64,000 nucleotides of DNA from the NCBI GenBank assembly GCA_944324635.1, contig CALUXC010000005.1, positions 4,691 through 68,690 of the forward strand. The letters run 5' to 3'. This DNA comes from Candidatus Avelusimicrobium intestinipullorum (GTDB taxonomy: Bacteria > Elusimicrobiota > Elusimicrobia > Elusimicrobiales > Elusimicrobiaceae). Both the position numbers and the translations under genes were made by a program. Under the pieces are notes generated by a model, which searched no databases, had not been told where the DNA came from, and saw only the letters and a list, made by a program, of their open reading frames with translations. This document shows, in pieces, positions 1 to 4,154 of this stretch (within the stretch, counting starts at the first letter, position 1; every line of letters starts with the position of its first letter).

Positions 1-15
1 AAAAAGAAAAGTTTT

Positions 16-21
16 TATAAT
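16..21 (+). promoter_or_regulatory. Possible -10 box (TATAAT) upstream of the structured segment
   Basis: Exact TATAAT at 16-21; the -35 region would fall outside the window; AT-rich context makes a chance match possible. Confidence 0.3.
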
Positions 22-50
22 AGATGATATTGGAAAAGGAGTATTTTTGT

Positions 51-303
51 GTTCCATAAGCCTTAAACGTGGCTTATATACAATTTTGAATCTGTTTTTG
101 GAACCGTATGCAGAATACGGTGCGCTGTTGGGAATACCAACGGCACATTCTGAGTCCAAAAACAACCGTTTTTAGGCACAGTATGCTCGAGCTGATCCCT
201 TGAGTGTACCGTGCCGAGTGTTTCCTGCCCAGTTGGGCAGGAAACCACGGCTGTTTATATTTGGGTTACTCAGAATGGCTCAAATGTAACAGCCGTTTTT
301 GTT
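51..303 (+). ncRNA. Candidate structured RNA or 5' leader of unknown family (multi-hairpin, pseudoknot)
   Basis: No credible ORF. Stems 56-62/71-77, 103-109/115-121, 124-131/137-144, 156-163/168-176, 181-191/199-209, 220-230/235-245, 248-267/277-295. Loop 268-276 (ACTCAGAAT) is exactly complementary to linker 147-155 (ATTCTGAGT). G-U pairs favour the + strand. Confidence 0.55.
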
Positions 304-365
304 TCTCCATTTTTGCTTCTTGTTATTCTTGAGCCCGAGGAAGTCAAGTCTAGTAAGGAGAAAAA

Positions 366-872
366 ATGAGTCCACTTAGAGTTATACTCTCTGCAATGCT
401 AATCGCAAGCCTTACAGGTTGCGCCAGTTATCAGGTAACTACAAAAAATTCACGAAGTGTCCCCCTGGATTCGAATCGGCCCGTATATATTGCCTTAACA
501 CAGGGAGAATATCCTCAAGAGAATCAAGAAACACAAAATACTTTTGTTCAAGAATGGAGGTCCTACTCCAAACAAGTAATCCCCCTGAAAACTCCTTCTT
601 CATTACGAGAAGCCATCAAAAAAGCTCAATTACTAGGAGAGGGTTATTTGGTTTATCCGTTAGTAAAACAATGGGAAGACCACAACACGCCTTGGTCTAC
701 CATTAGAGATAAAGTTCAAATATCAGTTGTATTAATAGACATAAAAAGCGGTCGAATATTAGATAAAAGTGTACTAAATGGCAAGAGTACCACCTGGACC
801 ATGAAAAACACGACCCCTTCGATTATTCTGCCTAACTTAGTTAATCGCTATATAGAACCTTTGTATAAATAG
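366..872 (+). CDS. DUF4823-like lipoprotein
   Basis: SD AAGGAG at 355-360; lipobox LTGC; WEDHNTPWS..RDKV motif resembles DUF4823. Confidence 0.7.
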   Translation: MSPLRVILSAMLIASLTGCASYQVTTKNSRSVPLDSNRPVYIALTQGEYPQENQETQNTFVQEWRSYSKQVIPLKTPSSLREAIKKAQLLGEGYLVYPLVKQWEDHNTPWSTIRDKVQISVVLIDIKSGRILDKSVLNGKSTTWTMKNTTPSIILPNLVNRYIEPLYK

Positions 873-883
873 GAGACATTAAT

Positions 884-2797
884 ATGACCACAATATTACT
901 TATCTTACTAGCTGCCGTTGGAATCGGTGGCGGATTAGCAGCTTCTGGCGGAAGCAGCGGCGGAAGTGATGGCGGCTATGAAAATCCAGTTCAGCCTGGC
1001 GAAAAGCCAGAAATTATCAGCTTATTAACATCGATAGATCGCTATCAACAAACCCAACAAGTCGGTGAAATTTCTGTAGCAGAATCCTCTTTAATTGTAA
1101 GAGGAGAACGGCCCGTTGTAGAAAATGGCAGATTTAAATACAACATTGATCCCGACAGAGGAGAATTAGAAGATGTTTACGAACCCTACACGGTTTCTAT
1201 CGGAGTCAATGATTATAGCCACTCAGATGATTATGCAGACTATTACGAACACCAAGGAGATACTATTAAAGGCTTGTACAACTACAAAGAACACTCTTAT
1301 GAACCTGACAATTGGATCGATATGGAAGTAGTGTCCCGTGATATTTTAGCTTTGGGTGGGCAAAAGTTAGGATTAAAAAGCAGCGATTTTGGGTATCATA
1401 ATAATTCCATTAGTTTTTCTTCTTTCGGAGAATTACCCTGGTATGAACCTTTCTATTTGTATGATACTACCAAGATTGCATCAACCGACCGAACCGATAC
1501 CGCCACTTATCAAGGGCACCTATTGGGCGGGGTAGAATTGGTAGAAACCGAAAGTGGTTATGCAGCAGGGAAAGATTATCTTCCTTTTACTGGGAATATT
1601 AACTTAAATATAGATTTTGCAAATAGAACTTTAAATGGAGATATGGCCACTGCTCTTGCCAGTTTAAGTTGGTATAAGTTTAACTTATCTGGGAATCTAT
1701 CTTCTTCCAGTGATTTTAATGTTAATTCAGTTTCCATTGATCACAATAGCCAGCCGGATTCTGCTCTCTCTAAATATAAACTCAATAGTGTGAATTATGC
1801 AACCGGCTCAGGAAAGTTATTAGAAGGCGAGACACAAGATGAAATAGTGGGAAAGCTTTCTTTTTGGGGAGAAAATTCTCAGTATAGCGTCTTTGTTAAT
1901 ACTTCTTTTGGTGCCATTTCACCCAAGCCTGAAGCGCCTGTTATTAAACCCAACTATAATTTAATTAGTGCTTTAACAGATAAACAACAATATCCAGATG
2001 TCACTTGGGAGGTACCCACCGATGAACTTGCGGCGCCAGCTTTTTATACTCAAAGTGGATTTATGAAACCTTCTGCTCAGTTAGCAGAAAATAGCATAAT
2101 GCTAACTACAGCGGCTCCTATATTAAATAATGGGGTATTTTCTAATCATACCTTCAATGGGATGTTATCTAGTGAAATTAATTTTCAACCTGAAACCATC
2201 TATTTAACAGAAGCCAATTTAACCCAAAGTACAGCTTATGAAAAAATATACACAGAATCCCGTTCTTGGACTGGACAATATAAAACTGGTTCAACCTCAT
2301 CCCCAGCATGGTCTACCAAACAAATCAATCGTCTCAACGTAGTAGGGCTAGGGGGAAGCAAATTGGGATTAACAGCAAGTGATTTTGGATATTGGAAAGT
2401 AAGTGAAGAAGGAAGTTTCTGGCACCTTAATGTCCCTTATTATTATCTATATATGTACGATAATACGAAACTTGCTAAAAACATACAACAAGATTCAGCC
2501 CAGCTCAAAGGGTATTTGTTACCCAATCACTATGAAATGAATATGAACTTTAACTTTGCCACAAACAAACTAACTGGTAATGTATTTGATTCTTCGGCTG
2601 GTTCTAACCTGTTTGATTATACGGGAGACGTTTATAATGCTGGATTCCGCTTGCAAAGTATTGCGCCAGATTCTCACACTGGATCATATTGGTGGGGAAA
2701 TGGAACGTTACTGACAGGAAATGAGGGATTGGAAGCAGTTGGTTATATTGCCAACTCCAATCAACGCTATTCTTTTGGTGCTAAAGAAATAAAATAA
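884..2797 (+). CDS. Bilobed TbpB-like (transferrin-binding-protein-like barrel) surface or secreted protein; probable Slam substrate
   Basis: Hydrophobic N-terminus plus Gly/Ser linker; two internal repeats (LGGQKLGLKSSDFGY / LGGSKLGLTASDFGY); barrel-type strands ATYQG, LNIDFANRTLNG, FNFATNKLTG; lobes end FGAI and FGAK; adjacent to Slam. Confidence 0.7.
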   Translation: MTTILLILLAAVGIGGGLAASGGSSGGSDGGYENPVQPGEKPEIISLLTSIDRYQQTQQVGEISVAESSLIVRGERPVVENGRFKYNIDPDRGELEDVYEPYTVSIGVNDYSHSDDYADYYEHQGDTIKGLYNYKEHSYEPDNWIDMEVVSRDILALGGQKLGLKSSDFGYHNNSISFSSFGELPWYEPFYLYDTTKIASTDRTDTATYQGHLLGGVELVETESGYAAGKDYLPFTGNINLNIDFANRTLNGDMATALASLSWYKFNLSGNLSSSSDFNVNSVSIDHNSQPDSALSKYKLNSVNYATGSGKLLEGETQDEIVGKLSFWGENSQYSVFVNTSFGAISPKPEAPVIKPNYNLISALTDKQQYPDVTWEVPTDELAAPAFYTQSGFMKPSAQLAENSIMLTTAAPILNNGVFSNHTFNGMLSSEINFQPETIYLTEANLTQSTAYEKIYTESRSWTGQYKTGSTSSPAWSTKQINRLNVVGLGGSKLGLTASDFGYWKVSEEGSFWHLNVPYYYLYMYDNTKLAKNIQQDSAQLKGYLLPNHYEMNMNFNFATNKLTGNVFDSSAGSNLFDYTGDVYNAGFRLQSIAPDSHTGSYWWGNGTLLTGNEGLEAVGYIANSNQRYSFGAKEIK

Positions 2798-2804
2798 TTA
2801 ATTT

Positions 2805-2833
2805 AGGGCCTTAACAGAATATGTTAGGGCCCT
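2805..2833 (+). terminator. Hairpin between cargo gene and Slam (weak terminator or mRNA stabiliser)
   Basis: AGGGCCTTAACA-GAATA-TGTTAGGGCCCT, followed only by TTCTC. Confidence 0.5.
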
Positions 2834-2840
2834 TTCTCAT

Positions 2841-4154
2841 ATGAAAAAAATATTATCTTGTTTATATTGCTTACTTTTCCCCTTCTATGCTTGGGCATTC
2901 GATACACAGCGGGCAGAAATATTGCTGGCTGGTAATAATATTGAAGGAGCCCAACAGGCTTTAATTGAAGAATACCAAAAAACCCACAACAATCAGGAAA
3001 AAGAACAAATTCAATTTCTGATTGCCCAACTCTCTTTACAAAAGAAAGATTATGAAGAAGCTGCCTCTATATACCGAAAAATACTTTCAGATAATCCTTC
3101 TCTCACTCAAGTGCGATTAGAATTAGGTTTTGTATATTTTTTACAACACAAAGACGATGCCGCCCGCTACCATTTACGACTGGTGCTATCTGAAAAAGAT
3201 TTATCCCCTATCATAAAACAAAATATACACAATCTGTTAGAAGTTATGAGACGTCGGAGATCCTGGCAACTATACATTAGTGTAGGAATGGCCCCGGATT
3301 CTAACATTAATACAATGTCTGGAAGGAGACTGGAATGCTTTAATTTTATGGGACTTCCTTTTTGTAGAGAATTAGATAACATAGAATCGGATGTTGGATT
3401 TCAAGGATTTGGTTCTCTATCCTATATTTATAAATTAAGCGATAATTGGGGATTAAAAGGACGCTTGATATTAGATAGCATTGATTATAGTGATGATCGA
3501 TATTCTTTTTGGGGAATAGGTGGAGAATTTGGTCCACATTATATAGTAGGGCGCTCTGAGTATGGCCTAGGAGTTTCTTATCGCCAACAATGGAATGATG
3601 AAAGTCGCTATAATACAACGAAAGGGCTCTTCGGAGATTTTTCAGCCGATATTTCTAATAGATTGTCTTTATATGGGCGCTTCAATCTAGACCAAGCAAA
3701 TTATAATGATTATGAATATCAGGGATACAATTCTCATAACTATGCATCATTCTTTCGTTTAATGTATGGCATAAATAACAGGAGTTATGCGTCTTTATCT
3801 GCTTCTTTAATTTATGAACGTAGCCAAAGTGATTGGAATAATAATATTCGTCAAAGATATGCTTTGGGATATGGGAGAGAGCTGCCGTGGGGATTTAACA
3901 TATATGCAGAACCAAATATTACTTTTGCTAACTACCAGGGGAAACGTCTTTTTATTGGAAGAAATAATAATTTAGAAGAAGTGAAAAGACAAGACATCAC
4001 GTACGGAGTTTATCTATCTCTAAGTAACAAATATCTGCGATTTTGGGATATTACTCCAACTGTAAATTTTATTTATAACCAACGGACTTCTAATGTATAT
4101 AATTATGATTATGAACGTACCCGTTGGGAAATAGGACTTAGCAAGAGTTTCTAA
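2841..4154 (+). CDS. Surface lipoprotein assembly modifier (Slam / DUF560 / type XI secretion) outer-membrane protein
   Basis: Signal peptide; TPR-like helices (YRKILSDNPSLTQVRLELG..YF); GMAPDSNIN at barrel start; amphipathic beta-strands ending WEIGLSKSF. Confidence 0.85.
   Translation: MKKILSCLYCLLFPFYAWAFDTQRAEILLAGNNIEGAQQALIEEYQKTHNNQEKEQIQFLIAQLSLQKKDYEEAASIYRKILSDNPSLTQVRLELGFVYFLQHKDDAARYHLRLVLSEKDLSPIIKQNIHNLLEVMRRRRSWQLYISVGMAPDSNINTMSGRRLECFNFMGLPFCRELDNIESDVGFQGFGSLSYIYKLSDNWGLKGRLILDSIDYSDDRYSFWGIGGEFGPHYIVGRSEYGLGVSYRQQWNDESRYNTTKGLFGDFSADISNRLSLYGRFNLDQANYNDYEYQGYNSHNYASFFRLMYGINNRSYASLSASLIYERSQSDWNNNIRQRYALGYGRELPWGFNIYAEPNITFANYQGKRLFIGRNNNLEEVKRQDITYGVYLSLSNKYLRFWDITPTVNFIYNQRTSNVYNYDYERTRWEIGLSKSF

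Follow-up and report, generated by a model that had tools for sequence, protein, structure and literature searches.

A putative attenuator leader RNA of about 220 nt, recurrent upstream of surface-protein genes in Elusimicrobiaceae

The DNA considered here, hereafter the window, is a stretch of 64,000 nucleotides (C5:4691-68690) from the 1.57 Mb, nine-contig genome of Candidatus Avelusimicrobium intestinipullorum, and it derives from chicken-gut metagenomes. At its 5′ end, a run of promoter-like, hairpin and terminator-like sequences precedes genes for a DUF4823 lipoprotein, a TbpB-like protein and Slam. We propose that window positions of about 28 or 85 to 368 (+) are the 5′ leader RNA of this DUF4823/TbpB-like/Slam operon, acting as an attenuator in cis, a reading to which we give a probability of about 0.72. 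The parts of the leader and the genes that follow are listed below in window coordinates.

16..21, +, −10 box TATAAT of a putative leader promoter (TAGCCA, 17 nt, TATAAT), from a consensus scan
35..42, +, SD-like AAAGGAGT box within the 5′ extension, which may serve as a decoy for the anti-SD strand
56..77, +, optional 5′ hairpin ATAAGCC/GGCTTAT, found in 18 of 98 copies
92..102, +, strand 1, CUGUUUUUGGA, the 5′ strand of P1 (putative anti-antiterminator), near-invariant in 101 copies
103..121, +, P2 hairpin with a GNRNA-type pentaloop (GCAGA), 84-93% paired, changes on both sides at 6-7 pairs
122..146, +, P3 hairpin, variable in sequence and length, changes on both sides at 8 of 8 pairs
146..155, +, junction 10-mer CAUUCUGAGU, copy-specific, the predicted terminator-loop partner, exact complement of 268-277
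156..168, +, strand 2, CCAAAAACAACCG, the 3′ strand of P1 or the 5′ strand of the putative antiterminator, pairing with strand 1 or strand 3
175..215, +, P4, a long hairpin whose apical loop CUGAUCC (192-198) holds the palindrome GAUC, 89.8% paired, 16 of 16 pairs covarying
220..245, +, P5 hairpin, 12-nt arms 100% complementary, 92.8% paired, 12 of 12 pairs covarying
247..300, +, predicted intrinsic terminator: strand 3 at 247-268, loop ACUCAGAAUG at 268-277, strand 4 at 277-296, U-run at 296-300
299..335, +, post-terminator strand with anti-SD UUUCUCC at 302-308 and UGUUAUUCUUGAGCC at 321-335 (inverted repeats I1, I5 and I10)
344..368, +, DUF4823 start region (SD GGAGA 357-361, ATG 366-368), paired with 299-332 in the lowest-energy fold
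366-872, +, DUF4823 lipoprotein (PF16105, 5e-18)
884-2797, +, TbpB-like protein (PF01298, 1.5e-6)
2841-4154, +, Slam (PF04575, 2e-28)

Just 5′ of the window (L005:1314-4362), a 243-aa ORF and a 777-aa helicase-like ORF overlap at the start of the latter; this pair, which lies directly upstream of the leader promoter, could be a defence-type gene pair.

The initial annotation had described seven back-to-back stems here, and all of them are found where it placed them, in a fold that spans positions 56 to 301. Its 11-bp stem with three G-U pairs (181-191/199-209) is present inside P4, and its perfect 11-bp stem near 220-245 came out of an inverted-repeat scan as a 12-nt perfect one (220-231/234-245). 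The last stem is a terminator-like hairpin (247-296), perfect over 9 nt at 247-255/288-296 and followed by TTTTT at 296-300. The same scan returned the P1 arms, 93-102/155-164, as 10 nt with 100% complementarity. The TATAAT at 16-21, the small hairpin at 328-348 and the SD at 357-361 were likewise recovered, and the 9-nt complement reported between the loop of the last stem and a linker extends to 10 exact nucleotides (146-155/268-277) and is kept family-wide. Against dinucleotide shuffles, the segment from 40 to 365 folds at −132.6 kcal/mol vs −82.4 ± 6.0 (z = −8.4), which bears out the suspicion of structure. The opposite strand folds too (z = −7.9), because any set of inverted repeats must fold both ways. 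A further pairing, 51-59/96-104, was set aside as chance because it is absent from the conservation of the subfamily that carries the 5′ hairpin.

The initial annotation had presented the element as a single one heading a “secretion island”. It is instead one member of a family whose copies number in the hundreds and mostly stand before pilin-like genes. Three copies, with 82-89% identity, occur in this genome, and their alignment already has compensatory changes in the 181-191/199-209 stem, while 146-155 and 268-277 are complementary in all three with different letters. A covariance model, R1, was built from a 17-copy alignment (A2; 223 positions, 73 pairs). With R1, 90 of the 96 species of the genus give full-length matches, the highest-scoring at 254 bits, with 1 to at least 23 copies per genome. 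Across the order, 128 of 227 genomes have R1 matches, and these fall in four of 25 genera, all in Elusimicrobiaceae. The model matched 107 places in 97 loci, from which 101 distinct copies were taken; alignment-free counts were made on 98.

Named genomes carrying a family 17-mer are MAGs of Elusimicrobiaceae, recovered from rumen, from birds and from other gut sources. Twelve matches to the 17-mer in non-Elusimicrobia genomes all fail the covariance model; five viral contigs sharing it were discarded as chance matches, and no family member was found in viral contigs, phage records or plasmids. Three loci labelled Muribaculaceae (L097), Eggerthellaceae (L118) and “Spirochaetes UMGS352” (L056) hold full-length leaders of 184-236 bits with Elusimicrobia-type genes downstream, and their contigs are probably mis-binned or mislabelled Elusimicrobiaceae sequence.

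The earlier failure to place the element in a known RNA family agrees with the Rfam searches, which used a permissive as well as the gathering threshold. With Rfam 15 at E ≤ 1, window positions 1-3000 returned only a spurious mir-4520 match (19.8 bits vs a threshold of 90), and six loci that together hold at least 10 copies returned only a tRNA; the T-box (RF00230), GEMM-I and GEMM-II models gave no match at E ≤ 1. Full-text literature searches found no description of the leader element. This is, then, a leader family of about 220 nt that has no Rfam entry and is not described in the literature searched.

The RNA data are short contigs of relatives from two metatranscriptome runs. These break inside the repeat, so that the contig ends are uninformative on 3′ ends; a 212-nt contig in one RNA run comprises about 140 nt of a leader relative (equivalent to window 91-229) plus short flanks.

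The 101 copies were aligned with MAFFT (alignment A4), without fitting to any structure, and pairs were counted there for a fold made up of P1, P2, P3, P4, P5, the terminator (T) and the helix between loop and junction. Across the copies, 86.7% of cells are paired, vs 72.2% in shuffles, and the figure drops to 39-47% when the partners are slid along the alignment. Changes on both sides of a pair occur in 1284 cells vs 469 in shuffles, and none of 500 shuffles was as good, with the reservation that such shuffles ignore the relatedness of the copies. Every pair covaries in P3, P4, P5 and the loop-junction helix, as do 14 of 19 in T; the pairing in P3 is just 74% in this alignment, which is poor in that region. 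P1 behaves differently: it is 98.6% paired, and its changes lie almost all on the strand-2 side and are mostly G-U wobbles. As for the strand, the R1 score is 234 bits for + but 12 bits for −, and the paired cells contain 884 G-U as against 217 A-C combinations. Both signatures mark the element as an RNA that is read from the + strand.

Four strands are near-invariant in the family: strand 1, CUGUUUUUGGA; strand 2, CCAAAAACAGCCG; strand 3, which begins ACGGCUGUU; and strand 4, which ends AACAGCCGU. All helices outside these four have drifted through compensatory changes. Strands 1 and 2 form P1, and strands 3 and 4 form the base of T. RNAalifold instead predicted an alternative fold, with a 2:3 helix that the copy-specific 10-mers lengthen and with strands 1 and 4 paired too. 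The core 2:3 helix (listed as 94-101/203-210) is 96.8% paired on A4. One of its pairs (listed as 96-208) is CG in 78 copies, UA in 12, UG in 11 and nothing else; strand 3 bears A only where strand 2 bears U. Direct covariation of 2:3 is mainly that of this one pair, whose 12 UA cases may share descent, and the antiterminator of the window copy has one A-C mismatch. In addition, strands 1 and 3 are alike, as are strands 2 and 4, so that much of the 2:3 complementarity could be a by-product. In constrained folding of 98 copies, P1 plus T had a median energy of −84.6 kcal/mol and 2:3 one of −80.0, with a median gap of 4.2; the P1-plus-T fold is the lower in 82 of the 98, in nested folds that cannot count the loop-junction contact.

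The mutually exclusive fold suggested earlier, CGGCAC (141-146) with GTGCCG (211-216), is at chance level (60.2% paired, equalled by 117 of 500 shuffles). The true alternative fold is, on the conservation just described, strand 2 (156-168) with strand 3 (247-256). The terminator hairpin occupies the same position in all copies, with energies of −13 to −31 kcal/mol and CCGUUUU conserved at 90% or more. A terminator hairpin with its U-run in the 5′ UTR and a conserved helix that excludes the terminator are features of an attenuator, and both are present. Conserved unpaired positions are few and are mostly explained by the alternative pairing. Leader-peptide attenuation of the trp type was rejected, as an SD, a start and at least 8 codons that overlap strand 1 occur together in just 20 of the 98 copies and the peptides are not conserved; the ATG in P2 is absent from 38 of the 98, and the frames are not conserved. 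The predicted anatomy is that of an anti-antiterminator/antiterminator/terminator leader, which is most likely a cis-acting transcription attenuator and probably a translation attenuator too.

In 97 of 98 copies, the terminator apex has an exact complement of 7-13 nt (mode 10) within the 14 nt before strand 2. There are 88 different junction 10-mers among the copies, and the complement between the apex of one copy and the junction of another is usually 3-4 nt and never more than 7. The terminator loop is thus predicted to be part of the fold, where it pairs with the 10-mer of the three-way junction. The initial annotation had drawn this as a pseudoknot. The pairing is real, but the same 10-mers can also extend the antiterminator as a nested helix, so that the pseudoknot need not be static and may belong to the switch rather than being merely a tertiary contact.

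A second loop shows a different kind of constraint. Palindromes of 4 nt or longer occupy the P4 loop in 92 of 98 copies, and in 54 they reach 6 nt or more, vs 4% of shuffled loops. About 18 different palindromes were seen (GAUC, UAAUUA, UUGCAA, UUCGAA, UCAUGA, CUCGAG and others), typically a palindromic 6-mer in a 9-nt loop with unpaired flanks, and six to eight palindrome classes coexist in one genome. Because a hairpin cannot use a loop palindrome within itself, the simplest reading is a kissing dimer, and the palindromes suggest that leaders may kiss each other through the P4 loop.

Downstream of the terminator, the family conserves a further layer of pairing. Family-wide, the post-terminator strand pairs with the start region at a median of −10.6 kcal/mol, vs −5.6 in shuffles and −7.3 between copies. 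With the 5′ end, including strand 1, the value is −13.5 vs −6.2, and this duplex reaches −10 or lower in 54 of 79 copies but in none of 79 shuffles. In 50 of 51 copies, some nucleotides belong to both duplexes. In the subfamily with the 5′ hairpin, to which the window copy belongs, the partner is strand 4 instead: the median is −18.0 vs −7.5 shuffled, with 12 of 14 copies at −10 or lower, and strand 1 is not paired with the post-terminator strand (−7.3 vs −8.1); by this choice of partner the subfamilies separate cleanly. Several pilin-type copies (L089:5843-6020, L076, L068, L085 and L058) carry an extra hairpin, AUAGGUCAGGUGCAAACCUGAC, between the post-terminator strand and the SD, which stretches the spacer to 65-170 nt.

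The subfamily has other marks of its own. TTTTTATAAT at the promoter is kept in all three copies of the genome and in the subfamily. Changes in the stem of the 5′ hairpin preserve pairing (CTAAGCC/GGCTTAG, ACAGCC/GGCTGT), and its 3′ arm overlaps TTATAT at 74-79, which aligns to the −10 box of most family members. About 20 nt 5′ of the hairpin, AGGAG or GAGG occurs in most of the 18 members, as read by eye and not counted. Pairing of this SD-like box with the post-terminator strand is above shuffles in some members only; in the window copy it is −10.0 vs −9.3, and the box at 35-42 was rejected there as a decoy for the anti-SD strand, while in some relatives the pairing is significant.

In the window copy, UGUUAUUCUUGAGCC (321-335) is complementary to strand 4, and strand 4 pairs with the post-terminator region at −17.0 vs −9.1 kcal/mol shuffled, so that 277-291/321-335 competes with 299-332/344-368. 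Positions 296-369 fold at −18.2 kcal/mol (z = −2.3), and both the SD and the AUG are paired in that fold. The nested energies are −122.6 for the OFF state, −113.3 for read-through and −107.6 for read-through with the strand 4-post-terminator helix (4:6) enforced, which makes the terminator fold more stable by 9 kcal/mol than read-through and by 15 than the 4:6-enforced form. Since these nested energies favour the masked state, we infer translational coupling in the window copy from subfamily conservation only.

Which genes lie behind these leaders? Pilin-like genes, recognised by the prepilin N-terminal methylation motif, are downstream of 65 of the 96 copies with enough sequence. Other products include a sulfatase-family membrane protein, a zinc-ribbon membrane protein, a GT9 heptosyltransferase, an outer-membrane beta-barrel and HSDR_N_2. 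For nearly all copies, the next ORF is co-oriented, with a median of 48 nt from the U-run to its start codon; this leaves little room for a second promoter and argues that the leader acts in cis. The three copies of the present genome precede the DUF4823/TbpB-like/Slam cassette, a zinc-ribbon protein and a sulfatase-family protein. The genome encodes 41 pilin-like genes (GFTLIELLVVV N-terminus), for example at C1:124411, C5:13687 (window 8997) and C5:52430 (window 47740), yet none of its three leaders stands before a pilin, and a search with filters off found no degenerate leader copies before the pilin genes of the window. Sister species, by contrast, have dozens of pilin genes behind this leader; in the present lineage the two have become uncoupled. 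The N-terminal regions of two adjacent pilin-like genes, C2:111801 and C2:112521, are identical and point to a recent tandem duplication.

The promoter, leader and anti-SD strand form a module of about 430 bp that occurs at 92-93% identity amid unrelated genes in three species (L005:4601-5025, L009 and L060). No terminal inverted repeats or target duplications were seen by eye at the module ends in the alignment.

We propose the following working of the leader. In one state, 1:2 (P1) and 3:4 (the terminator) would form, and transcription would stop at the U-run at 296-300. In the other, the 2:3 antiterminator would form and the polymerase would read into the operon. The fate of P1 would decide the outcome. 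If P1 holds, the terminator would form and its loop would dock on the junction, and, in any read-through RNA, the post-terminator strand would keep the ribosome-binding site paired. If strand 3 captures strand 2, the terminator would be blocked, and a freed strand (strand 4 here, strand 1 in the pilin subfamily) would capture the anti-SD strand and open the start site. The outcome would be a double lock on transcription and translation. The junction and loop 10-mers could serve to dock the terminator once it is complete, or else to seed the antiterminator ahead of the synthesis of strand 4, and which of these applies we can only infer; because both 10-mers adjoin strands 2 and 3, their pairing may nucleate the capture of strand 2.

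The trigger could be a small ligand, a protein, metal ions, the speed of the polymerase or an RNA-RNA contact. A protein candidate could be one that binds the invariant block of strand 1 and P2. The P2 pentaloop (GCAGA, GAAGA, GUGGA) on its 7-bp stem offers a lead in its resemblance to the boxB hairpins bound by phage N antiterminator proteins. It is tempting, if unlikely, to suppose that the family is a new class of self-contained RNA switch, with RNA-RNA contact and not a metabolite as the trigger: each leader would have a private 10-nt “address” and a shared palindromic loop by which members of one class dimerise, and free terminated leaders could feed back on nascent ones. If this were true, the cell could count or coordinate dozens of surface genes, for example by expressing few pilins at a time. 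A ligand-sensing orphan riboswitch with a new fold would be the more conventional form of this idea.

The initial annotation had left a choice between a stand-alone ncRNA and a riboswitch or attenuator. The promoter, the U-run terminator, the exclusive antiterminator and the co-oriented gene favour the attenuator, and the first option has lost ground. In its present form, that option would be a stand-alone small RNA of about 220 nt, with the strong terminator as its normal 3′ boundary, acting in trans, for instance as a P4 kissing dimer, with the downstream genes expressed via leakage only. Such an RNA would suit the terminator fold being lowest in energy in 82 of 98 copies, a terminator hairpin built into the tertiary fold via its loop, palindromic P4 loops that point to RNA-RNA contact and the 212-nt metatranscriptome contig covering about 140 nt of a relative. 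It sits poorly, however, with a co-oriented ORF 30-60 nt downstream of nearly every copy, which has no room for a promoter of its own, and with conserved post-terminator sequence that pairs with the start site and with a leader strand, a pairing without purpose unless read-through RNA matters. A pure trans function is unlikely on these grounds, and action in trans and attenuation in cis are mutually compatible.

It might also be argued that the leader is a constitutive structured 5′ UTR, serving as an mRNA stabiliser, processing site or insulator without switching, and that an ancient duplication within the element left the alternative pairings as by-products. The likeness of strand 1 to strand 3 and of strand 2 to strand 4 would indeed make the 2:3 and 1:4 complementarity automatic. 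However, a U-run right after a 21-bp hairpin should halt most transcription unless countered. In addition, the four strands are frozen while the other helices have drifted, the pattern expected when a strand must satisfy two partners, and strand 3 changes from G to A only where strand 2 has U. We consider a constitutive UTR decidedly unlikely. That the element works at the DNA level, as a MITE-like cassette, a recombination site or a single-strand origin, is very improbable: it is multicopy, the 430-bp module stands amid unrelated genes in three species and each copy has unique 10-nt inverted repeats, but terminal repeats and target duplications are absent by eye, viral contigs, phages and plasmids hold none, G-U outnumbers A-C four to one, the model scores one strand only, and orientation and distance to the next gene are fixed.

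The preferred reading, an attenuator in cis, has well-known precedents. In the PyrR-bound pyr attenuators of B. subtilis and in OFF-riboswitch platforms, anti-antiterminator, antiterminator and terminator helices compete. The present leader shares with them three exclusive helices, a P1 that would sequester the 5′ strand of the antiterminator, a location in the 5′ UTR and a multicopy regulon; it differs in its length of about 220 nt, its six helices, a terminator loop included in the tertiary fold, a second layer at the RBS and the lack of an Rfam match. The 1:2, 2:3 and 3:4 strand logic is that of trp-type attenuators, unlike which it has no conserved leader peptide. In the L5-L13 kissing loop of cobalamin riboswitches, the loop of the platform hairpin pairs with a loop of the sensor. 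Here, too, a loop of the expression platform would contact a junction and couple the fate of the platform to the fold of the sensor. In contrast to L5-L13, the contact spans 9-11 bp, it is the terminator loop itself that is involved and its sequence is different in nearly every copy, and there is neither a cobalamin-type core nor an Rfam match.

The P4 loop recalls the DIS of HIV-1, which forms a loop-loop kissing dimer. As in the DIS, the loop is often of 9 nt with a 6-nt palindrome and unpaired flanks (AC-UAAUUA-C, AA-UUGCAA-G), and self-complementarity is kept through sequence change; unlike the DIS, it belongs to a bacterial leader RNA, its dimerisation is putative, and the palindrome of the present genome has just 4 nt (GAUC). 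The general mechanism is known; new elements are the fold itself, an “address” formed by loop and junction, a palindromic loop and a domino-like series of helices.

Riboswitches for c-di-GMP are reported upstream of genes for pilins and surface proteins, Clostridioides difficile being one example (PMC6200980, PMC6366702). The leader resembles them in its many copies per genome before pilin and surface genes, but its architecture is unrelated and neither GEMM-I nor GEMM-II matches it. These genomes do encode GGDEF proteins, which keeps c-di-GMP among the candidate ligands, although as such it is pure conjecture.

For RNA biology, the family offers hundreds of natural variants with rich covariation, a terminator loop that would take part in the tertiary fold, and chained helices that would link termination to ribosome access. 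The compact module, from promoter to SD, could serve as a portable regulatory part. Elusimicrobia are common, barely cultured gut bacteria whose gene regulation is almost unknown. The leader precedes tens of pilin-like genes per genome, as well as outer-membrane, LPS-core and sulfatase-family genes and the Slam cassette. With a large share of the surface repertoire behind it, the leader is probably a master control point for the host-facing surface of these bacteria.
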